Notes: generated by a model from the letters alone, not told the origin. 64,000 nucleotides of DNA from an uncultured Acidobacteriota bacterium (GCA_963713825.1 CAVQNG010000005.1:160001-224000); one strand, 5' to 3'; positions 6,500 through 52,501 are shown, numbered from the stretch's first letter. Numbers and translations: made by a program.

Positions 6500-8710
6500 C
6501 TACTGAAGGTAGCCGAGAGCCTTCAATTGCTGCTTGGTCTCGTCGTCGAAGTCCATCGTTTCGATCTCGGGTAGCTGGTCGAGCTCCAGCAACTGCCGAC
6601 GTATCAGGGTGGCGAGATAGCCGGCGAGAACCGGATACTCCACGGCCAGGTCGATCTGCTCTTCGGGGTCCTGGACCCTGTCGTAGAGCTCGCGGCTTCG
6701 TGCAAAGCTGGCGGAGAGAGGCTCGATGAGCTTCCATTGGTTCCAGATCACACTCATGCCCCGTCTTCCTTCGTAGTCCAGATAGGAGAAGACAGGGTCG
6801 CCACTGGCGGCTTGCAGCCGCTTGCGATCGAGGAGCGGTGCCAAGCTTCGACCTTGCAGCTCCGTCGGAGCCTCGAGACCGGCGAGCTCGAGTAGCGTTG
6901 GCAGCAGGTCGATCTGCTGCACCGGTTCCGCAACGCGCTGGCCGATCGTGGTTCCAGGCAGCTTGAGGAGCATGGGCACCTGGATGGACTCTCTGTACAG
7001 GTCCCATCCGTGGCCCTGGATGCCATGTTCGTAGAAGCCTTCGCCATGGTCGGAGGCCAGGACAATCAGCATCTGGTCGTAGAGCCCCCGGCGACGGAGG
7101 TCTTCCAGCAGCAGTCCGAACTGGCGATCGGCGAAAGCGATCTCGGCATCGTAGAGGTCCATGAGGTCCTGGACGGTCTGCGGTGTCTTCGGGATCTCCC
7201 CGAAGGCGAGGCCACGGATGTGTTCGAAGGAGCCCGCTTCAGGATCGCTGACGTCGGGTGCGAAGGTGCGACGGTACTGCTCGGGTGGGTCGTAGGGGGC
7301 GTGGGGATCGATGGTGTGAACGTAGAGAAAGAGAGGACTCCCTGCCTCATCGCGGTCCAGCCAATCGAAGATCTGTTGGTTGACGCGATCGGCGCGTGCT
7401 GGCTCTAGAGCGAACTCATCGAAGCCCTGGCGCAGTCCGGAGTCAGCAGAGAAGTAGGCGTTGGTCGTGAAGGCGATCGTCCGGTAGTTGGCCGCCGACA
7501 GGAGCTCGGCCATGGTGGAGAACCTCGATGCGAGGCGCTGCTCTCGATGATTGACGCCGTGAGCCGTGGTTCTCAGGCCCGTGAAGATCGAAGCCACCGC
7601 GGGTTTGGTCCAGGATGTCTGGGCCATCGCGTGGTCGAAGACGACCGCTTCTTTGCCGAACCGATCGATTTCGGGGGACACGTCGCGCGCATATCCGTAC
7701 AGGCCCAGATGATCGGCCCGCATCGTGTCGACGACGTAGAGGAGAATGTCGGGAAGCCCGGCCTGGAGGCCCTCAGTCTCCACAAAACCCGGCTCTACAG
7801 CGGGCTCGCGTTGGCTCGACGGGGACTCGATCCGGGGGCCCCGAAGGAAGAGTGGGTCAGGAGTTTCCGCTTGGGCTGCAGCCAGGAACGAGAGCTTCAC
7901 CGCCTGCTCTTCGTCGAGCGGTAGATCGATTGTGACGCCTTGCCGGTTGGAGCGCAGGTCGAGCGATTCGATCAGCGTGCCACGATCGGTCAGCAGGCTG
8001 ATCTCGAGCGCGGCCGCGGTCTCATCGAGTCCGGAGATTTGGTCGAAGACTAGCCTGTCCTGAGGTCTGGCCTCAAAGTAGAAGTCGATCCCCGACCCGA
8101 AGGGCATCGAGATCCCGGTCTCGCTCGCAGTGATTTCTGAAGGAGAGGCAACCGGCTCGAGGTGGAACCGAAGCCAATCCCATCCTACTGCCAGACTCCG
8201 AGCCTTGCCGCCCCGAGAACCTGTTTCTGGCGACTGACTGTATTGATATTCGAAGGTCAGCCGATTGATGCCTCGTTTCAAGGCTTCCGCCGGGACTTGA
8301 ATCTGGTAGGTCCGGGGCCCGGATTCGAGTGAGATGGGCTCGAGGGGGATGTCGTTGAGTGTGGGACGGATCTCTTGCGTCGGGGCACCTTCGAACGAGT
8401 AGGGGAAACACCTCATTTCGAGGCCGAGATCTCGTGGTGACGAGAGAAAGAAGTGCAGCTCCGAGATGGGACCGGTCCCCCAAACGAAGGAGGTGCCAAA
8501 TGACCTCTCGTTCCAGGACCATCCAGAGTCGAGAAAGGCTCGGGCTTCCGCCGATCCGAAGTCCAGCTCAGTGGGCTCGAAATGGATGTCTGCCGTCGCC
8601 AGCTCCCCGGTCAAGGCGAATCGAGTCTCGAACGAATCGGAGCGCTGGCAGGCCGAAAGTACGACGAAAGCCACGATGGGCAAGAGGCAAGTGCGGATGC
8701 ATTTTTCCAT
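6500..8710 (-). CDS. Lipoprotein with C-terminal sulfatase-like hydrolase/transferase domain (start could be up to 8764)
   Basis: LSAC lipobox; DILLYVVDTMRADHL, SWTKPAVASIFTG, HTIDPHAPY, SDHGE motifs; C-terminal LKALGY. Confidence 0.9.
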   Translation of the reverse strand: MEKCIRTCLLPIVAFVVLSACQRSDSFETRFALTGELATADIHFEPTELDFGSAEARAFLDSGWSWNERSFGTSFVWGTGPISELHFFLSSPRDLGLEMRCFPYSFEGAPTQEIRPTLNDIPLEPISLESGPRTYQIQVPAEALKRGINRLTFEYQYSQSPETGSRGGKARSLAVGWDWLRFHLEPVASPSEITASETGISMPFGSGIDFYFEARPQDRLVFDQISGLDETAAALEISLLTDRGTLIESLDLRSNRQGVTIDLPLDEEQAVKLSFLAAAQAETPDPLFLRGPRIESPSSQREPAVEPGFVETEGLQAGLPDILLYVVDTMRADHLGLYGYARDVSPEIDRFGKEAVVFDHAMAQTSWTKPAVASIFTGLRTTAHGVNHREQRLASRFSTMAELLSAANYRTIAFTTNAYFSADSGLRQGFDEFALEPARADRVNQQIFDWLDRDEAGSPLFLYVHTIDPHAPYDPPEQYRRTFAPDVSDPEAGSFEHIRGLAFGEIPKTPQTVQDLMDLYDAEIAFADRQFGLLLEDLRRRGLYDQMLIVLASDHGEGFYEHGIQGHGWDLYRESIQVPMLLKLPGTTIGQRVAEPVQQIDLLPTLLELAGLEAPTELQGRSLAPLLDRKRLQAASGDPVFSYLDYEGRRGMSVIWNQWKLIEPLSASFARSRELYDRVQDPEEQIDLAVEYPVLAGYLATLIRRQLLELDQLPEIETMDFDDETKQQLKALGYLQ

Positions 8711-33551: not shown

Positions 33552-34433
33552 TCATGAAGGAGAGGAGATGCGTTCCTTGAAGTAGCCTGCGGCGTTGGCA
33601 AGTTGCCAGATTCCGAGCAGAGCCAGCGCTGTGGTGCGCTTCTTCAGCGGTAGCTCCTTCAGCGGCTGCCGCAACATCCCCGGCAAGCGTCGATGGAAGA
33701 CGGCGTCGTCACGCAGCTGGCCGGAGCCCCGCTCGGCCCGAAGGCGATGGTAGTGGTGAGCTCCGCGGCCATAGGTGAAGTGCTGTCTCCAGTACCTTTG
33801 AAGGCTCGCCGGGCGCGCGTGAATCAGGTGTGCCTCGGGAACATAGAGCAGATCGTGTCCCAGGTGACGCCAGCGATCGCACAGTTCCCGATCCTCCGAG
33901 GCGCGGGGAAAGAACTGGGGATCGAAACCACCGACATCCCGCAGCAGCTCTGCAGAGATCGCCATGTTGTTCGATGGAAAGAAGCTGGCACCCTGGCCGG
34001 ATTCGTTGTAGAAGCGATGGACGGCGTCGAAGATCAACTGATTGGTTTCGGAATAGGGGTCCCCGGGTTGCTGCGTGGTGCGTCCCCCGATCAGGGCCTC
34101 GGGGTGCTCCTCGAGCGCCGACTCGAGCGCTCGAAGCCATTCTCGGTCGATGAGGCAGTCGTCGTCGGTGAAGGCGATGAACCGCCCTCGTGCGGCTGCC
34201 AAACCCAGGTTGCGAGCCGGACCAGGTCCAGCGTTTTCCTGTCTGAGCACGGTCAACTCGAGGCGATCTCTCCAGGGCTTCAGCTGGGGCTCCAACGGTT
34301 CGGGAGTACCGTCGTCGACGACAAGGACCTCGAATTCGTCACCAGGTGGATCGACTTCGACTAGCGTGTCCAGACAATTGCGAAGCTGGTCGGGCCGGCC
34401 GTAGGTTGGAATGATGATGGAGAAGGTCAGCAT
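33552..34433 (-). CDS. Glycosyltransferase family 2
   Basis: SIIIPTY, VVDDG, GPGPARNLG, FTDDDC, GGFD, SEDRELC. Confidence 0.92.
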   Translation of the reverse strand: MLTFSIIIPTYGRPDQLRNCLDTLVEVDPPGDEFEVLVVDDGTPEPLEPQLKPWRDRLELTVLRQENAGPGPARNLGLAAARGRFIAFTDDDCLIDREWLRALESALEEHPEALIGGRTTQQPGDPYSETNQLIFDAVHRFYNESGQGASFFPSNNMAISAELLRDVGGFDPQFFPRASEDRELCDRWRHLGHDLLYVPEAHLIHARPASLQRYWRQHFTYGRGAHHYHRLRAERGSGQLRDDAVFHRRLPGMLRQPLKELPLKKRTTALALLGIWQLANAAGYFKERISSPS

Positions 34434-34497
34434 CGCTCTGGAGGGGCAGCGTAGCACGGTGAAATGTCAGCCAAACGAGGCTACTGACGAAAAATCC

Positions 34498-34526
34498 TTG
34501 CCAAGGAGTCGGTGCGGGAATATGGT
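34498..34526 (+). promoter_or_regulatory. Putative sigma70 promoter for the FmdB gene
   Basis: TTGCCA-N17-TATGGT; AGGAG RBS follows. Confidence 0.5.
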
Positions 34527-34554
34527 TTGAGGGTATTGCGTTAGGAGTTGCGTC

Positions 34555-34782
34555 ATGCCTATGTACGAATACATCTGCAAGAGTTGTGACCACCAGTTCG
34601 AGATTCTGCAGCGCATGGGAGAGGGGGCCGAGGGCCTATCTTGTCCCAAGTGCGGTGAGAAGCGCGTCGAGAAGCAGTTCTCGACCTTTTCCAGTAGCGG
34701 TCCAAGTACCCCCACGTCGGCTGGTTTCAGTGCCGGTGCCGGTTGCGGCGGCGGCAGCGGCAGCGGCTTCAGCTGAGCGTAG
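34555..34782 (+). CDS. FmdB-family zinc-ribbon protein; candidate selenoprotein (TGA 34774-34776 read as Sec, true stop TAG 34780-34782)
   Basis: MPMYEYICKSC...CPKCG; Gly/Ser tail GCGGGSGSGFS then TGA GCG TAG; SECIS-like hairpin follows and selC lies 130 bp downstream. The CDS itself is confident; the Sec readthrough is inferred. Confidence 0.85.
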
Positions 34783-34817
34783 TGAATGAGCGGCCCGGCG
34801 GGCCGCTGAACTTTCAC
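34782..34817 (+). promoter_or_regulatory. Bacterial SECIS-like stem-loop
   Basis: Upper stem AGCGGCCC/GGGCCGCT with apical loop GGC beginning 20 nt after the UGA; lower stem GTGAA/TTCAC. Confidence 0.6.
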
Positions 34818-34911
34818 CACCTCCATCGGAAACAGAGTCGTCACGGGACTAGGCACTGCCTAGTTGGTGACTCTGTCGGGGAGAAGAGGTGTGATGGGCT
34901 AGAATCCACCC

Positions 34912-35011
34912 GGAAGCGCTCAGGGGCTGGTGCCTCTCGCGGTCTTCAAAACCGTAGTCCCGCGCCGGTGTCGGCGAGGGGGGTGGGTTCGATTCCCATG
35001 CGCTTCCGCCA
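34912..35011 (+). tRNA. selC: tRNA-Sec (UCA)
   Basis: 8-bp acceptor GGAAGCGC/GCGCTTCC; 6-bp D-stem AGGGGC-TGGT-GCCTCT; anticodon loop CTTCAAA; long variable arm; 5-bp T-stem with TTCGATT loop; G discriminator and encoded CCA; TAGAAT -10 element upstream. Confidence 0.97.
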
Positions 35012-35071
35012 CTGTCTTTCCCCCGCAAGCATGTCGATGGTCAATTCCCTCTTGGAGGTCGGCTGACTGTT

Positions 35072-35159
35072 GCGTGGGAATCGAACACGGAGGGGCAGGT
35101 ACGGGTGGTGCAGTGTAGGCGACCGTCAGGAGCCAACCCAGCTCGCTGAGCGCTTGCGC
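35072..35159 (-). pseudogene. Degenerate inverted copy of selC
   Basis: Minus strand begins CGCAAGCGCTCAG (vs CGGAAGCGCTCAG), retains D-arm and anticodon-arm similarity, and ends GTTCGATTCCCACGC (vs GTTCGATTCCCATGC) at near-identical spacing; the acceptor 3' strand is lost. Confidence 0.65.
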
Positions 35160-35203
35160 GAAGCGGCCAGAAGGCACAGTTCGTCCCGAGGTCGCGGGCG
35201 ACC

Positions 35204-35226
35204 TCGGTTCCCATGCGCTTCCGCCA
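35204..35226 (+). repeat. Direct repeat of the selC 3' end (att-like site)
   Basis: TTCCCATGCGCTTCCGCCA at 35208-35226 is identical to 34993-35011 (22/23 with the preceding 4 nt); followed by AT-rich TTTGTTTTCAATAACT. Confidence 0.88.
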
Positions 35227-35342
35227 TTTGTTTTCAATAACTCAGGTAGTTTTCGGTTGTTCTGTGAGCTGCCTCACTGAGCTCCTCTCCCAATACAATT
35301 GGGGCGGGTCGAGCTGTGAATTACCCGATGAGGAGCCGTGCC

Positions 35343-35654
35343 ATGCGCATTCGCGATCTGTTTCGACGCACCAGGGACTGCGATCATGTCGCTGAGTTGA
35401 GCGAGGTCGAACCCAACTCACCGGATTCCTGCCTGCTATGTGTCGAGATGGGAGACACCTGGGTCAACCTGCGGTTGTGCCTGACGTGTGGCCATGTCGG
35501 ATGCTGCGATGCTTCGAAGAACAAGCACGCCACTGCCCACCACAAGGAGACAGGGCACCCGATGATCCAGTCCTATCAACCGAAAGAGCGGTGGCGGTAC
35601 TGCTATGTGGACGATCAGATGGTGACGGAGGCTGATACACCAGCACGCCACTAG
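35343..35654 (+). CDS. UBP-type zinc-finger domain protein
   Basis: CDH...CLLC...WVNLRLCLTCGHVGCCDASKNKHATAH...WRYCYVD; GAGGAG RBS. Confidence 0.92.
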   Translation: MRIRDLFRRTRDCDHVAELSEVEPNSPDSCLLCVEMGDTWVNLRLCLTCGHVGCCDASKNKHATAHHKETGHPMIQSYQPKERWRYCYVDDQMVTEADTPARH

Positions 35655-35776: not shown

Positions 35777-37318
35777 CTACTCGATCGTGGTGCTGCACCT
35801 GTCCGTGTCGCCGGTCTCGAAATTCTCGATGAAGATCGTAGGCTCGCCAAGGAAGGTCCACACCTTGCCGGCGTCGTTGGTGGTCAGGTCGTAGTAAGGC
35901 GCGGCGATGACCATGTCGTCATAGCCGTCGCCGTCGGTGTCGCCGGTCGACAGGGACCAGCCGAAGTAGGAGGACGCCTGGTCTCCCTCGACCGCCCAGT
36001 CTGCGTAGTCAAGCGGTCCTTCAGCGCCGAGACCATCCTCGGTACCAAGCCAGAGCAGGGTCATTCCGGCGTAGTTCACGGCACCGACAGTGTGCCCGAT
36101 CGCCCCGATCAGGACGTCATCGTAGCTGTCACCGTTGTAGTTCAGGACCCTGACATTGCCACCGAACTGGTCGTTCTCGGCTGCGCCGTATGCCAGCCAA
36201 TCGTTGTTGATCGGGTCTCCATCGACGTCTCCCAGACCGTCTGCGGAGCCATACCAGACGAGAGCCATTCCATCGTTCGTTTCCATGTGGTCATAGAGTC
36301 TGATACCTACGATGAGATCGTCGTAACCGTCGGCATCGAAATCACCGCTTGCCACGGCATTCATTGCAGATGTGCCCATTCTGGCGTCTGCCTGATCTCC
36401 CTCCGCCGTCCAGTCGGCGTTGGAAGGATTCCCTGGAGCGCCGAATCCTGTGGCCGATCCGTACCACACGAACACCTTGCCCTCGTTGGCCTGGCCGGCG
36501 TCATAGAACGGAGCTCCAATCAAGATGTCGCCGTATCCGTCGCCGTTGAGGTCACCTGCGGAACCGAGAACGGTGCCGAAGCCGGCATCGTCCCAAGGGA
36601 TACACTGATCACCCATTGCGTACCAGTCGGCGCTGGCTACAGTCGTGGTACCCACCCGCGCGTTCGATCCGTAGAACAAATACCCGTGGTTGATGATGGG
36701 CGCTGCCCCATTGCAGGCGTCGTAGCGCCGGGCACCGATGAGGATGTCGTCGTAGCCATCGTTGTCGAGATCGCCAGCAGAGGCCACCTCGAGGCCTGTG
36801 TGAGCATACAGAGCGGTCCCGGTGACTCTCCAATCCCAGTTAGCGTCTAGACCGCCATTCGATCCGTAGTAGAGGAAAACAGCTCCGTCATCTGACGTGG
36901 ATGAGTCGTAGTTCGGCATGCCGATGAGAAGATCGTCGTGGTTGTCACCGTCGACGTCAGCGGCTGCGACGGCTTCGCCGAAGTAGCCATGGGCGTTGAT
37001 GACCGGAGGATTGATGATCAGGTTGGGTGTGGTGGCCGGACCGTCTTCCGAGCCGTAGAACACCCACACCCTGCCGGAACGAACCTGGCCTGAATTGAAG
37101 AATCGCGAGCCTACCGCTACATCGGAGTAGCCGTCGTTGTTGAAGTCACCGGTTGCGCTGACCGATTCTCCGAGGAAGTTCTCCAGTTGATCTTGTTCGA
37201 AGTCCCAGATTGCGTCGGCGAGAGTGGCCCAGGCGCCGATGGCAAACGCGGCCGGAGAACTGACTAGAGAAATGAGAAACGCACCCACAAGAAGCCGCCG
37301 GATCAGCTTGTTGTCCAT
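35777..37318 (-). CDS. Secreted FG-GAP (integrin alpha-like) repeat protein; probable adhesin
   Basis: AAGGAG RBS; signal peptide; about seven GDxNxDGYxD(I/L)xxGA repeats; C-terminal IFIENFETGD motif. Confidence 0.92.
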   Translation of the reverse strand: MDNKLIRRLLVGAFLISLVSSPAAFAIGAWATLADAIWDFEQDQLENFLGESVSATGDFNNDGYSDVAVGSRFFNSGQVRSGRVWVFYGSEDGPATTPNLIINPPVINAHGYFGEAVAAADVDGDNHDDLLIGMPNYDSSTSDDGAVFLYYGSNGGLDANWDWRVTGTALYAHTGLEVASAGDLDNDGYDDILIGARRYDACNGAAPIINHGYLFYGSNARVGTTTVASADWYAMGDQCIPWDDAGFGTVLGSAGDLNGDGYGDILIGAPFYDAGQANEGKVFVWYGSATGFGAPGNPSNADWTAEGDQADARMGTSAMNAVASGDFDADGYDDLIVGIRLYDHMETNDGMALVWYGSADGLGDVDGDPINNDWLAYGAAENDQFGGNVRVLNYNGDSYDDVLIGAIGHTVGAVNYAGMTLLWLGTEDGLGAEGPLDYADWAVEGDQASSYFGWSLSTGDTDGDGYDDMVIAAPYYDLTTNDAGKVWTFLGEPTIFIENFETGDTDRCSTTIE

Positions 37319-37403
37319 TTCGATCTCCTTTCGCTCGCAAGTCTCGAAGGTGATGACAAACATCAGTCGAGCACGAACTGTACTCGGCATCTCTGCAACT
37401 CGG

Positions 37404-37520
37404 GCCTTCGGTAGCTCGGCGGTCCTGGAGTCCTGCTGGGCGGAAGGTCCGTCCTGGAGGAGACAAGGACCCGTGGCTTTGCGCCCCCGACTCTCGTCGG
37501 GTTTGCCTTTGTCGTGACAC
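37404..37520 (-). ncRNA. Cyclic di-GMP-I (GEMM) riboswitch
   Basis: Minus strand GTCACGACAAAGGCAAACCCGAC-GAGA-GTCGGGGGCGCAAAGCCACGGGTCCT...AGGACCGCCGAGCTACCGAAGG matches the GEMM core (GGCAAAC, GNRA loop, GCAAAGC, CTACCGA); lies in the 5' UTR of the FG-GAP gene. Confidence 0.9.
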
Positions 37521-40668: not shown

Positions 40669-40719
40669 GTGTCTCGATTCGAGACGTTGACGATCGAGAA
40701 CTTGAGAGAGCCTGTTTCT

Positions 40720-41040
40720 ATGCCTCTGTATGAATACGAGTGTCAGTCCTGCGGCGAACGAGTCGAGGTCCTGCAGCGAGTCGGTGCCCCGGCGATCGGA
40801 GTCTGCGATGCCTGCGGTGGCGAATTGAAGCGACTTCTGTCAGCGCCCGCCTTCCAGTTCAAGGGCACTGGGTGGTATGTAACGGACTATGCCAAGAAAA
40901 ACTCCTCGCCGGCGGGGGAGTCGCAAGGCACCAACGAGGGCTCCAATTCGAAGCCCGAGGCGTCGGGTGACGCCAAACCGCAGACCAAGAGCAAGGCCGC
41001 CAAGGAGAGCTCAGACAAGAAGACTCCCGCCTCCAGTTGA
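40720..41040 (+). CDS. FmdB-family zinc-ribbon protein
   Basis: MPLYEYECQSC...CDACGG...FKGTGWYVTDY with a low-complexity Ser/Lys tail. Confidence 0.92.
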   Translation: MPLYEYECQSCGERVEVLQRVGAPAIGVCDACGGELKRLLSAPAFQFKGTGWYVTDYAKKNSSPAGESQGTNEGSNSKPEASGDAKPQTKSKAAKESSDKKTPASS

Positions 41041-48949: not shown

Positions 48950-50863
48950 CTAGCTCAGGTAGGCCTCCAGCAGCTGGCCGGCGATGGACATGAAGTCCCG
49001 CTCCGTGACGATGCCCACCAGGCGCGTCCTCTTGTCGATGACCGGAAGGCAGCTCACCCTTCGGTCTCGCATCAACCGGATGGCCTCGAGCGTCGACATC
49101 GTTGGACTGGCCGTTACCAGGTCGGTCTTCATGATCTCACTGACGGGAACCGGGCTTTGCTCCTGGCCGGGGGTGTTGTCGGCAAGGAGCCTCAAGAGCG
49201 AGCGGTGGGTGACCAGGCCGACGAGCCGGTGGAGGTTGTCCTCGACCGGTACATGGCGGATGTGATGCCAGTTCATGACACAGGCAACAATGTCCACCAA
49301 CTCGTCCTGATTGACAGTGAACAAATCGGTCGTCATCAACTGACCGACCCGCAGGTGATGCTTCTTGCCATCCCCGGCTTCCTCGAGGGATGCCAGCTCC
49401 CAGGTGTGGACCGGTTGCTCGGTTCGTTGCCGGCTCACCGTCGCCGCGACGAGGGCGGTCAGACACTCGGCCGGCGAACCATCGCACTTCATGCGGTCAT
49501 AGGAGTCCACCTGCCATTGAGAACCAGTCCGAAGGCTACTGACTCTCTCTTCGACAACCCCCAGATACCGATCGATATCGGAGGAGTCGGTGTCGAGATC
49601 CTGCAGTCCCTGCCGGGCGATCGGTAAGAGCTCGACCAGGAGGAGCTGCTGGGCTGGGATGTTGCCTCTGTCTGGCCAGCTCAAATGCGCTCCCAGGCCG
49701 AGCCGGGCGGCCGCAACGAAGTTCTCCCGTGCGACTTCGAACTCCATGACCTCGGTGACATCCGGGTACAGAGTGGAGACTCCATTCAGCAAACCGAACC
49801 AGAGGGCGGCGTTGGCGACCTCGTCGAGTGGAGTTGGGCCGGCCGGCAGAATTCGGTTTTCGATGCGCAGATGGGCCTTGTCTCCCGAGATTCCATAGCA
49901 GGGCCGGTTCCACCGATAGATGGTGCCGTTGTGCAGGCGTAGTGCTTGGAGTCGAGGCGCCACCCCTCGGGCCATGACCTCGAAGGGATCTTCGTCCACG
50001 TCGGTGCTCATGAGAACGCGGAAGCGCGAAATGTCCTCTTTGAAGATCTCGACGACCGACTCGTCTACCCACCGCCGCCCGAAACTCACTCGTGGGCTCT
50101 GCATCCTGAGATGCCCGGCTGGCGAACGGGTATCGATGGACTGCTGAAAGAGCGCGATGCGGGTCTCCCGCCAGAGTTGCCTGCCGAAAAGCATGGGGGA
50201 GTTCGTGGTCGCCGCCAAGACAGGAGCAGCCACCGCTTGAGCAGTGTTGTAGAGACGGGCAAAGTTCTCGGGCTTGACCTGAAAGTGAACCTGGAAGCTG
50301 GTGTTACAGGACTCGAGCATGACGTTGTCATGCGTGACGTTGATCTCGTCGCGGCCTTTGAGGTGCAGGTGATAGCGTCCACCGCGCAACCGGGTCATCG
50401 CTTCGTTGAGGGCGAAGTACCGTGCCCGTGGCGTCATGTTGTCGAGGGAGAGGTCGGCCTTGTCGAGAGTAGGGAGAATCCCGCACAGAACGACTTCCGT
50501 GTCCAGTTCTTCTGCGGCCAGACGGGCCTTGTGGAGCAGCACGGTGAGCTGCCGTTCCATCTCCCGCAAAGAAGTGCCACCGAGCGTGATCGGGTCGAGG
50601 TTGCACTCCATGTTGAAGCGACCCAGCTCGGTCGTGAAGTGGGGATCGTCGATGCGCTCGAGCAGCTCGGTGGCGACCGGTGCCGGGCGCCAATCTCGAT
50701 CGACGAGGAACATCTCCTGCTCGGCCCCGATACGTCGCACTTTGGTCTCGAAGAGGCCATTCTCGAGCATTGTCTCGAGAGCCCGAAGGTCTGTGAGGAG
50801 CTTGCGGCTGAACAGGCGGAGCTGCTCGGCGTCGAACTGGTTCTTGACTTTCTGCTCGCCCAT
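48950..50863 (-). CDS. Glutamate-cysteine ligase family (GCS2-like) protein fused to a CBS pair
   Basis: IGAEQEMFLVD, SFQVHFQV, HNGTIYRWNRP, HLRIENR; two C-terminal CBS domains. Confidence 0.87.
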   Translation of the reverse strand: MGEQKVKNQFDAEQLRLFSRKLLTDLRALETMLENGLFETKVRRIGAEQEMFLVDRDWRPAPVATELLERIDDPHFTTELGRFNMECNLDPITLGGTSLREMERQLTVLLHKARLAAEELDTEVVLCGILPTLDKADLSLDNMTPRARYFALNEAMTRLRGGRYHLHLKGRDEINVTHDNVMLESCNTSFQVHFQVKPENFARLYNTAQAVAAPVLAATTNSPMLFGRQLWRETRIALFQQSIDTRSPAGHLRMQSPRVSFGRRWVDESVVEIFKEDISRFRVLMSTDVDEDPFEVMARGVAPRLQALRLHNGTIYRWNRPCYGISGDKAHLRIENRILPAGPTPLDEVANAALWFGLLNGVSTLYPDVTEVMEFEVARENFVAAARLGLGAHLSWPDRGNIPAQQLLLVELLPIARQGLQDLDTDSSDIDRYLGVVEERVSSLRTGSQWQVDSYDRMKCDGSPAECLTALVAATVSRQRTEQPVHTWELASLEEAGDGKKHHLRVGQLMTTDLFTVNQDELVDIVACVMNWHHIRHVPVEDNLHRLVGLVTHRSLLRLLADNTPGQEQSPVPVSEIMKTDLVTASPTMSTLEAIRLMRDRRVSCLPVIDKRTRLVGIVTERDFMSIAGQLLEAYLS

Positions 50864-51061
50864 CGGACCTCACCGCGGGGGGACCCGAGCAGCCCTAGGG
50901 GGAGCGCTCCCTCCCGCCGCCAGGCTGCTTCGGGGACCGGAACCGCAACTGATCGATTGCTCGAGGATTTTACGCCGACGGGGCACCACCGGCAAATCCG
51001 ATGGTGCCCCGTGAGTGTTTGAGACTGGCTCGGCCCGAGGCGATCGGGCCGAGATGCGAGA

Positions 51062-52501
51062 TCAAGCCGCGGCGATCAGGCTCTTGACCTCACTGACGAT
51101 CTCCTGCAAGACCTTCTTGGCATCGCCGAAGATCATCATGTTGTTGTCGTACTCGAAAAGCTCGTTCTTGATGCCCGCGAAGCCGGGACTCAAGGAGCGC
51201 TTGATCATCATGACCGACTGAGCCTCCCAGACCTGCAGGACCGGCATTCCAGCGATGGGACTCGTCGGGTCCTTCTCCGCAGCAGGGTTCACTACGTCGT
51301 TGGCACCAACGACGAGCACGGCGTCGGTCTGCTTGAATTCCGGATTGATGGTGTCCATTTCGATCAACTGCTCGTAAGGGACATCGGCTTCGGCCAGCAG
51401 AACATTCATGTGGCCAGGCATCCGGCCCGCTACCGGGTGAATCGCATAGGAGACCTTGACGCCGCGCTTCTGCAGCAGATCCGCCAGCTCTTTGACTGTG
51501 TGCTGCGCCTGCGCCACCGCCAGACCGTAGCCCGGCACGATGACCAGCGATTCGACGGTCTCCAACACCATGGCCGCCTCCTCGGGACTGTAGGAGCGGA
51601 CGGTGCCGTATTCTCCGGCATCCGCTGACCCGCCCTCTTGACCGAAACCGGAGAACAGCACGTTGCTGAGAGTCCGGTTCATGGCCACGCACATGATCTG
51701 CGTCAGGATCAATCCGGAGGCTCCGACCAGGGCACCGCTGATGATCAGCACGTTGTTGCTCAGCACGAAGCCCGTCATGGCGGCGGCGAGACCCGAGAGT
51801 GAGTTCAAGAACGAGATGATCACCGGCATGTCGGCGCCACCAATCGGGATCACCAGCAGCACTCCGAGAATGAGGCTGATGGCGGTTGCCACCAAGGCAC
51901 CCATGACCATGGTGGAAGGCTCGGTGCTGAAGAACCCGATGTAGATACCCGCGGCCAGACAGCCCAGGAAGAACAGTCCGTTGATGACGTGTCGAGCCGG
52001 CAGTAGCGTCGGTTGACCACCGATCTTGCCGCTCAGCTTCAAGAAAGCCACGAAACTGCCCGTCAGTGTGATCGAACCGATGAGGATCGAAAGAAAAGCG
52101 GTGACGGCGGAGGCGCCACCTAGCGCTTCGGCTGCTGATCCTGCGAAGGCAGGCTCGATGAGTGCCTTCCAAACGATGGAGAGGGCCACAAGGGCAGACG
52201 CTCCACCGCCGAAACCGTTGAACAGAGCGACCATCTCGGGCATCGAAGTCATCTCGACTTTGATCGCCGCAATGCCGCCGATCAGGCCACCGATGATGAG
52301 ACCGGCGATGATCCACTGGTAGTCCACGACTCCGAGGTCCAGCAGGGTCGTCACGATGGCGATGAGCATCGCCAGCGCCGCCAGGGCGTTGCCGCGGCGC
52401 GCGGAGCGCACGCGTGTCAGGCCTTTGAGCCCGAAGATGAAGAGCACTGCCGACAGCAGATAGAGAACTGGGACGATGATGTTGTTCAGAACGTCGTTCA
52501 T
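51062..52501 (-). CDS. pntB: NAD(P) transhydrogenase subunit beta
   Basis: IGGADMPV, PGYGLAVAQAQH, HPVAGRMPGHMNVLLAEA, GANDVVNP. Confidence 0.97.
   Translation of the reverse strand: MNDVLNNIIVPVLYLLSAVLFIFGLKGLTRVRSARRGNALAALAMLIAIVTTLLDLGVVDYQWIIAGLIIGGLIGGIAAIKVEMTSMPEMVALFNGFGGGASALVALSIVWKALIEPAFAGSAAEALGGASAVTAFLSILIGSITLTGSFVAFLKLSGKIGGQPTLLPARHVINGLFFLGCLAAGIYIGFFSTEPSTMVMGALVATAISLILGVLLVIPIGGADMPVIISFLNSLSGLAAAMTGFVLSNNVLIISGALVGASGLILTQIMCVAMNRTLSNVLFSGFGQEGGSADAGEYGTVRSYSPEEAAMVLETVESLVIVPGYGLAVAQAQHTVKELADLLQKRGVKVSYAIHPVAGRMPGHMNVLLAEADVPYEQLIEMDTINPEFKQTDAVLVVGANDVVNPAAEKDPTSPIAGMPVLQVWEAQSVMMIKRSLSPGFAGIKNELFEYDNNMMIFGDAKKVLQEIVSEVKSLIAAA

Follow-up and report, generated by a model that had tools for sequence, protein, structure and literature searches.

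Selenocysteine (Sec, U) has been described before in zinc-ribbon proteins of the FmdB family. In the report on the Global Ocean Sampling (GOS) metagenome just two such sequences are given, with Sec positioned within a CxxC motif of the ribbon, as CxxU (PMC2398784), and the corresponding entry of a 2026 review lists the motifs U/CxxU and UxxU (PMC13188914). The sections of the review that deal with bacterial proteins carrying Sec at the extreme C terminus name UXX-star family 2 (NF041211, GxGU), KCU-star (NF033934), and SaoC (Cys-Sec-COOH), and mention metal-ligand roles suggested for C-terminal Sec residues (PMC13188914). The model of the bacterial Sec insertion sequence (bSECIS) presented there has a stem of 4-16 bp, a loop of 3-9 nt with the pattern N1-G-[G|U]-N-N2, a spacing of 16-37 nt, and an MFE (minimum free energy) of at most -7.5, with a G required within the first two loop positions (PMC13188914). 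Here we describe a gene located on the plus strand of a 64,000-nt stretch of DNA from an uncultured Acidobacteriota bacterium (GCA_963713825.1, CAVQNG010000005.1:160001-224000; this whole stretch is called the window below), which very probably encodes, at positions 34555-34782, a 75-residue selenoprotein of the FmdB family that ends in GFS-U-A and is truncated by annotation. A hidden selenoprotein of this kind had been proposed in a preliminary description of the locus, and the stop codons of its relatives and the hairpin that follows the UGA proved favorable to that proposal, with suggestive support from the existence of Cys forms. A literature search revealed no description of an FmdB protein with C-terminal Sec, although one may still be present in Haft & Gwadz 2023 or Haft & Tolstoy 2025.

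The apparent open reading frame (ORF) of the gene, 34555-34776, comprises 73 codons ending in GFS and is closed by TGA (34774-34776). As the preliminary description had pointed out, the frame runs on past this codon as GCG followed by TAG (34780-34782), and translation with TGA read as U yields MPMYEY…GCGGGSGSGFS-U-A-stop. The protein belongs to the FmdB family of zinc ribbons (TIGR02605/PF09723), with scores above the curated cutoffs for both Pfam Zn_ribbon_8 (PF09723, residues 1-42, 58.2 bits, cutoff 34.4) and the NCBIfam model of the FmdB family zinc ribbon (TIGR02605, residues 1-50, 66 bits, cutoff 31.3). The ribbon has the arrangement CxxC-x18-CxxC, and its four Cys residues are invariant or nearly so across 56 homologs. 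All of these positions have Cys codons, and the sole in-frame TGA is codon 74, located in the tail. In the AlphaFold2 model, calculated from an alignment of 56 sequences, residues 1-40 form a three-stranded ribbon of moderate confidence (block-mean pLDDT, the predicted local distance difference test, of 66-77), and residues 47-75, with pLDDT <50, form a predicted disordered tail. The tail that precedes the UGA is Gly/Ser-rich, predicted to be flexible, and equipped with one Cys, as had been claimed; this residue, Cys64, is conserved in at least 90% of the 56 homologs. Upstream of the gene, a consensus scan found one promoter-like site, with 0.1 expected in shuffled sequences.

Of the 55 homologs recovered by an initial protein search, almost all are 65-75 residues long and terminate at …GF[S/T]. 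The protein of a near relative is present at NCBI as a truncated, 71-residue form titled only "zinc ribbon domain-containing protein". A scan of genomes, one per species, matched 201 stretches, 149 of which encode relatives, and the best 80 of these 149 loci, derived mostly from metagenome-assembled genomes of Thermoanaerobaculia or other Acidobacteriota, were combined with the window into a comparison set of 81 members. The closest loci, L001-L003, have 79-82% identity to the window gene, suggesting that the window derives from their lineage. The 67 loci showing a TGA and a near second in-frame stop are referred to as Sec-type and the other 14 as non-Sec-type; independently of this division, 65 of the 81 members were grouped by their tails, the predicted protein ending in F-[S/T/A/I]. 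Flanks of up to 10 kb on each side of the 80 loci were included in the analysis, and 832 other predicted genes from the same loci were used as controls. The putative selenoprotein family is found mainly in Acidobacteriota (Thermoanaerobaculia).

The first stop is TGA in all 65 genes with an F-[S/T/A/I] tail, and neither TAA nor TAG was ever seen at this position. In 63 of the 65 genes a second in-frame stop is found 1-2 codons past the TGA, compared with only 15 of the 451 control TGA stops. The two exceptions end in F-[S/T] followed by TGA without the U-X-X-stop pattern: L013 (…GTDFS) has 109 open codons after the TGA, and in L077 the second stop is immediate (…CPFT TGA TAA). The second stop itself varies among the 67 Sec-type loci, being TGA in 48, TAG in 15, and TAA in four, and the control genes stop at TGA in 452 cases (54%), at TAG in 295, and at TAA in 85. 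Two residues separate U from the second stop in 62 of the 67 loci.

The codons that follow the TGA carry a coding signature. Codon +1 specifies Ala in 55 of the 67 Sec-type loci, written as GCG (30), GCC (21), GCT (2), or GCA (2). Codon +2, present in 62 loci, specifies mostly Ser (26), Arg (12), Ala (8), or Asn (7), with Ser drawn from both of its codon families (AGC 14, AGT 2, TCC 6, TCG 4). The use of synonymous Ala codons and of both Ser families points to selection acting on the amino acids and not on an RNA motif. The C termini of the family conform to G-C-G-x(4-6)-F-[S/T]-U-A-x-stop, and an in-frame UGA with coding-type conservation on either side, as observed here, is a criterion by which Sec recoding is recognized.

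The region following the UGA contains a perfect 8-bp hairpin, with arms AGCGGCCC (34789-34796) and GGGCCGCT (34800-34807) enclosing GGC (34797-34799). It begins 12 nt past the TGA, and its G-led loop begins 20 nt past the UGA, just as the preliminary description had it. The lower stem GUGAA/UUCAC, which that description also mentions, is indeed present in a 76-nt fold of the window, although the z-score of the fold is only -1.87, equalled by nine of 200 shuffles, and the stem is not preserved in the nearest relatives. With its 8-bp stem, CGGCG (including the closing pair), spacing of 20 nt, and local fold energy of -16.8 kcal/mol, the upper hairpin lies within the limits of the bSECIS model. 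The 50 nt from each TGA were aligned for the 67 Sec-type loci, and RNAalifold independently recovered the same helix with seven pairs. In the 8-bp helix, 84.5% of the cells are paired and double changes occur at all eight pairs. The number of double-change cells is 78, which drops to 19-30 if the 3' side is displaced by 1-3 columns, and the covariation score is 0.484, compared with <=0.128 after displacement; the observed values were reached by none of 500 shuffles. The successive columns of the loop are C (64 of the 67 sequences), G (62), and G or T (65), and 63 sequences have a G as the first or second loop nucleotide. The loop begins 16-22 nt from the UGA in 66 of the 67, and the MFE is <=-7.5 kcal/mol in 65. 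A strict test for a SECIS-type hairpin was passed by 60 of the 67 family loci and by eight of the 451 control TGA stops. Positions 34774-34810, which span the TGA and the hairpin, are nearly invariant between the window and L001-L003, the only differences being one base of the spacer and the codon that follows Ala (TAG versus TCC), whereas the next ~60 nt diverge. No other site in the window combined a TGA with a hairpin in a coding context convincingly.

These features would be accounted for by the following sequence of events. The ribosome would reach UGA74, with the hairpin located 12 nt downstream serving as the bacterial SECIS; SelB together with Sec-tRNA(Sec) would bind the hairpin, whose loop is C-G-G-C-G, and deliver Sec, after which the ribosome would add Ala and terminate at TAG. 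As the TAG separates the UGA from the hairpin, the SECIS would be located wholly in the 3' untranslated region (UTR).

Homologs with Cys in place of Sec, one of the checks proposed for the locus, were sought more widely. A profile search over 1.84 billion representatives gave 14,952 matches at E<=0.001, the best 150 of which, each representing a 50%-identity cluster, were inspected. Among these, 51 end in F-[S/T], where the Sec forms are truncated. A further 12 of the 150 end in GGG (P0101-P0105, P0108, P0120, P0134, P0139, P0140, and others) and 11 in F-[G/A/I/C]; these endings may be additional truncated tail types, possibly of other Sec forms. Cys endings do exist: P0076, one of the best 150 matches, as well as P0216 and P0222, end in GF-C-AN; P0219, P0220, and locus L046 end in GF-C-DLD; P0214 ends in GF-C-AGRDAE and P0215 in GY-C-DID. 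Except for P0076 itself and L046, these proteins were found by searching with P0076; a search focused on the tail recovered only truncated proteins of the Sec type. The match of these Cys residues to the Sec position is suggestive.

Two of the loci contain what is probably another selenoprotein. Directly upstream of the zinc-ribbon gene in L009 (8428-10011, TGA at 8611) and L026 (TGA at 8560), and ending at or overlapping its start, is a gene encoding a thioredoxin-like (AhpC-TSA/Thioredoxin_8) and NHL-repeat protein with an in-frame TGA. This TGA is part of the motif F-C-U-I-N-C and is followed, 25 nt downstream, by a hairpin of 7 bp whose loop is A-G-U-U-G. On account of the in-frame TGA within C-U-I-N-C, the genomes of L009 and L026 appear to decode Sec. 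A scan of all loci for a TGA combined with a hairpin gave 36 matches among 330 in-frame TGAs, mostly noise apart from these two; a candidate that adjoins selC in L048 and L068 has no Pfam match.

The gene for tRNA-Sec, selC, had been placed downstream of the zinc-ribbon gene in the same orientation, and both ARAGORN and Rfam (RF01852) locate it there, about 138 nt past the TGA. The same arrangement, with selC 59-139 nt past the TGA, is found in eight of the 67 Sec-type loci (the window, L001, L002, L003, L017, L027, L048, and L068), and in L030 and L034 the distance to the downstream selC is 1.7 and 4.4 kb, respectively. In all, selC is within 5 kb in 10 of 67 Sec-type loci and in none of the 14 non-Sec-type ones, whereas the remaining 57 Sec-type loci have no selC in their flanks. 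The linked loci fall into two neighboring groups, which corresponds to two changes on a quick, poorly resolved tree that would also permit a single origin. The adjacency is confined to a single subclade or two, and this clustering makes the linkage look like inherited synteny. In the window and L001-L003 the element GGCTAGAATCC is unchanged amid an otherwise divergent spacer, and TACAAT is present at the corresponding place in L027, L048, and L068, so that TA[G/C]AAT precedes the mature 5' end of selC by 6-8 nt in seven of the eight adjacent loci. This conserved -10-like element suggests that selC has its own promoter. In L027, L048, and L068 the hairpin ends ~15 nt before selC, and a -35 element of selC would overlap the hairpin DNA.

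One alternative is that the gene encodes an ordinary 73-residue protein, with the TGA as a real stop and the hairpin as an intrinsic terminator or an mRNA stabilizer ahead of selC. In its favor, these genomes use TGA more than any other stop (452 of 832 control genes), a GC-rich hairpin is found after certain stops (31 of the 451 control TGA stops have a hairpin of any kind), and the public gene calls among the 55 homologs all end at or before the TGA position. It leaves unexplained, however, the 65 TGA codons out of 65, the 63 near second stops, and the conservation of the Ala and Ser codons. The hairpin lacks a T-run, its 3' flank being GAACTTTCACC, and a scan of 34300-35300 gave no terminator-like site; a terminator would need neither a conserved loop nor a fixed distance from the UGA, so that the covarying hairpin with its G-[G/U] loop does not look like one, and the possibility that it acts solely as a terminator, raised in the preliminary description, was dropped. 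We consider an ordinary stop exceedingly improbable. Programmed read-through of the UGA without Sec, in which the hairpin would stimulate insertion of Trp, Cys, or Arg by a near-cognate tRNA to give a selenium-free protein of 75 residues, would be compatible with the comparative data, which point to translation past the UGA and not to a particular residue, and with the negative searches for selA, selB, and selD in the window and the 80 flanks. Against it stand the specific fit of the hairpin to the loop and spacing rules of the bSECIS, the presence of selC adjacent to eight loci and to none of the 14 non-Sec-type ones, and the occurrence of Cys at the matching place in relatives, along with a partner Cys kept 5-10 residues upstream, as Cys/Sec chemistry would have it. 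Read-through of this type is thus very unlikely, and we infer that the inserted residue is Sec.

The preliminary description had also taken the position of selC to suggest that the protein may sense selenium or couple UGA read-through to the expression of tRNA-Sec. In its explicit form, this would make the gene a sensor or leader, with a ribosome or SelB on the hairpin controlling transcription into selC. The same orientation and short distance in eight loci, the lack of a terminator in between in the window, and the ~15-nt gap in three loci, where a -35 of selC would overlap the hairpin DNA, are compatible with such a device. Most Sec-type loci (57 of 67), though, have no selC in their flanks, the linked ones cluster on the tree with two changes as inherited synteny would give, the conserved TA[G/C]AAT lies right before selC, and a conserved zinc ribbon with a Cys…Sec pair speaks for a functional protein rather than a mere leader. 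We regard regulatory coupling as highly improbable, and this part of the description was not sustained. The selC linkage is useful as circumstantial support for Sec biology, nothing found requires regulatory coupling, and the adjacency is a matter of subclade synteny, outside the mechanism.

Several observations weigh against the assignment of a Sec-containing protein to 34555-34782, the case for which is comparative throughout. Neither SelA, SelB, nor SelD was found among the ORFs of the 64-kb window with Pfam, and tblastn searches with the Escherichia coli K-12 proteins (E<=1e-2) gave no match in the window and the 80 loci with their flanks. No Rfam SECIS family was matched in the window at the gathering threshold or in 34700-34912 at E<=10, where only chance-level matches to microRNAs and small RNAs appeared. 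Clear Cys homologs are rare, with none among the 55 and seven matches of two protein searches, and those found fit GF-[S/T]-U-A-x only through a one-residue indel, the preceding S/T being deleted. The ending of the window gene itself, U-A-stop, with one residue after U, is a minority form found in five of the 67 Sec-type loci. As regards function, no neighbor common to the whole family emerged when the surroundings of the 67 loci were clustered, the biggest clusters comprising 14 and 12 loci. The calls of the control genes rest on a simple heuristic based on GC3 (G+C at third codon positions), and the nominal p-values of the stop-codon comparison (~6e-18, binomial; ~9e-7, Fisher) overstate independence because the sequences are phylogenetically related. 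Despite this kinship, the contrast between a constant first stop and a second stop, 6-9 nt on, that often changes still holds, and we retain the selenoprotein reading as the very probable one.

A Cys is found 5-10 residues before U in all 67 Sec-type loci, at a distance of 5-7 in 62 of them and of nine in the window (C64-x9-U74). We can speculate that this Cys…Sec pair, carried on a flexible arm, constitutes a selenylsulfide redox center or a site for a soft metal or metalloid, with the zinc ribbon used for docking, although such a role is tentative and rather less likely than its absence. It would resemble the metal-ligand roles suggested in the review for other proteins with C-terminal Sec (PMC13188914). 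One subclade of Thermoanaerobaculaceae has an ArsR-family regulator upstream in 14 loci and a DUF302 gene downstream in 12, with an AcrB-type RND (resistance-nodulation-division) pump nearby in six and a P-II-like protein in five. The order there, seen in L044, L045, L049, L051, L053, L055, L057, L058, L063, L074, and others, starts with the AcrB-type RND pump and continues with the P-II-like protein and the ArsR-family regulator; after a gap of ~430 nt come the Sec gene and DUF302, and TonB is encoded on the other strand. The ArsR, DUF302, and RND neighbors are hints that may point to the handling of metals or metalloids. A bolder combination would make the window gene the founding example of a large unrecognized selenoprotein family, in which the Cys…Sec pair is a swinging arm for soft metal(loid) or redox chemistry docked by the zinc ribbon and, in addition, a selenium switch: when selenium is scarce an inactive form ending in …GF[S/T]-COOH would be produced, as just 2-3 residues need Sec-tRNA. 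Taken as a whole, this combination is doubtful.

The features of the locus and of its surroundings are collected in Table 1. The second FmdB-family gene of the window (40669-41040) was considered as a possible Sec form and rejected, as it has a long, Lys/Ser-rich tail free of Cys and an ordinary TGA stop without a SECIS-like hairpin. Similarly, the perfect hairpin near 51020 was rejected as a SECIS, being located between two minus-strand genes and probably serving as their terminator.

Table 1. Coordinates of the zinc-ribbon gene, its putative control elements, and other features of the window
Feature	Position	Strand	Basis and remarks
Sigma-70-like promoter candidate, TTGCCA-17-TATGGT	34498..34526	+	Consensus scan, 9/12 matches; inferred
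Shine-Dalgarno-like AGGAG, 7 nt 5' of ATG	34543..34547	+	Read from sequence
Revised coding sequence, predicted 75-residue FmdB-family zinc-ribbon selenoprotein, M1…S73-U74-A75	34555..34782	+	Translation with TGA=U, Pfam/NCBIfam, comparison; stop TAG 34780-34782
Zinc-ribbon domain, residues 1-46, CxxC at C8/C11 and C30/C33	34555..34692	+	PF09723, TIGR02605, AlphaFold2
Predicted disordered Gly/Ser/Ala-rich tail with Cys64 (34744-34746), end G-F-S-U-A	34693..34779	+	pLDDT, conservation
UGA, putative Sec codon 74	34774..34776	+	TGA conservation, downstream coding-type conservation
Putative bacterial SECIS-type hairpin in 3' UTR, stem of 8 bp, loop GGC with C-G as closing pair	34789..34807	+	Folding, covariation, bSECIS criteria
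-10-like TAGAAT, probably part of the selC promoter, 6 nt ahead of selC	34900..34905	+	Conservation; inferred
selC, tRNA-Sec gene, anticodon TCA	34912..35011	+	ARAGORN; Rfam RF01852, 69.2 bits, cutoff 47
Small zf-UBP zinc-finger protein gene, first after selC	35316-35654	+	PF02148, 52.6 bits; domain from residue 39, start uncertain
FG-GAP-repeat protein gene	35777-37390	-	Pfam
c-di-GMP-I-GGC riboswitch	37406-37516	-	Rfam RF03167, 72 bits, cutoff 59; directly upstream of FG-GAP-repeat gene
Second FmdB-family zinc-ribbon gene	40669-41040	+	PF09723, 51.7 bits; domain from Met18, probably the true start
10-bp GC-rich perfect hairpin, CTCGGCCCGA-GGCGA-TCGGGCCGAG	~51020-51065		Between minus-strand pntB (51062-52501) and CBS/GCS2 gene (48950-50863)

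If confirmed, the gene would represent a new selenoprotein family, perhaps common in Acidobacteriota of soils and sediments, that standard gene calling does not reveal, since the truncation removes no more than 2-3 residues and the SECIS is positioned outside the annotated ORF. The poorly understood FmdB zinc-ribbon family with Cys-rich tails would gain a chemical handle in the form of a terminal Cys/Sec site, and the short list of bacterial proteins whose Sec lies at the extreme C terminus would grow. The SECIS consensus of this lineage, GGCC-CG[G/U]NN-GGCC, 16-22 nt past the UGA, could aid in finding other selenoproteins in these genomes. No NCBIfam selenoprotein model matched the window protein and five read-through orthologs above noise at E<=10, with NF041197 reaching just 13.8-15.4 bits (cutoff 40). 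The case would be one of a standard bacterial Sec-recoding gene from an uncatalogued family, and what it calls for is a correction of annotation, with no new mechanism involved.

Animal thioredoxin reductase has a C-terminal Gly-Cys-Sec-Gly arm, in which a redox-active Sec is carried on a flexible tail beside a Cys. By analogy only, the protein encoded in the window resembles it in having a predicted near-C-terminal Sec, a flexible tail, and a Cys partner; it differs in that Cys and Sec are adjacent in the reductase, a large flavoenzyme, and 5-10 residues apart here, in a 75-residue ribbon without a known catalytic partner. The hairpin agrees with the bacterial SECIS consensus model of Zhang & Gladyshev, as outlined in the review, in its stem of 7-8 bp, loop of 3-5 nt, early G-[G/U], closing N1-N2 pair, spacing of 16-22 nt, and MFE <=-7.5, and departs from it in being located wholly beyond the stop codon and in having no Rfam SECIS match (PMC13188914). 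The GOS selenoproteins (Zhang & Gladyshev 2008) are members of the same zinc-ribbon family and likewise Sec forms of a mostly Cys protein. The statement that FmdB-like proteins have appeared in selenoproteome surveys is correct as far as the family goes, although in the published examples Sec is inside the ribbon CxxC, whereas the ribbon of the window protein is all Cys and its putative Sec is in the tail, 1-2 residues before the stop. In this respect the closest counterparts are UXX-star family 2, KCU-star, and SaoC, which, in the review's summary of them, also have Sec 0-2 residues from the C terminus (U-X-X-stop in 62 of the 67 loci here), a position that requires the SECIS to be in the 3' UTR and costs annotation only a few residues. 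Unlike UXX-star family 2 and KCU-star, with their GxGU and KCU motifs, the present proteins carry the motif GF[S/T]U, and the domain to which it is attached is a zinc ribbon.

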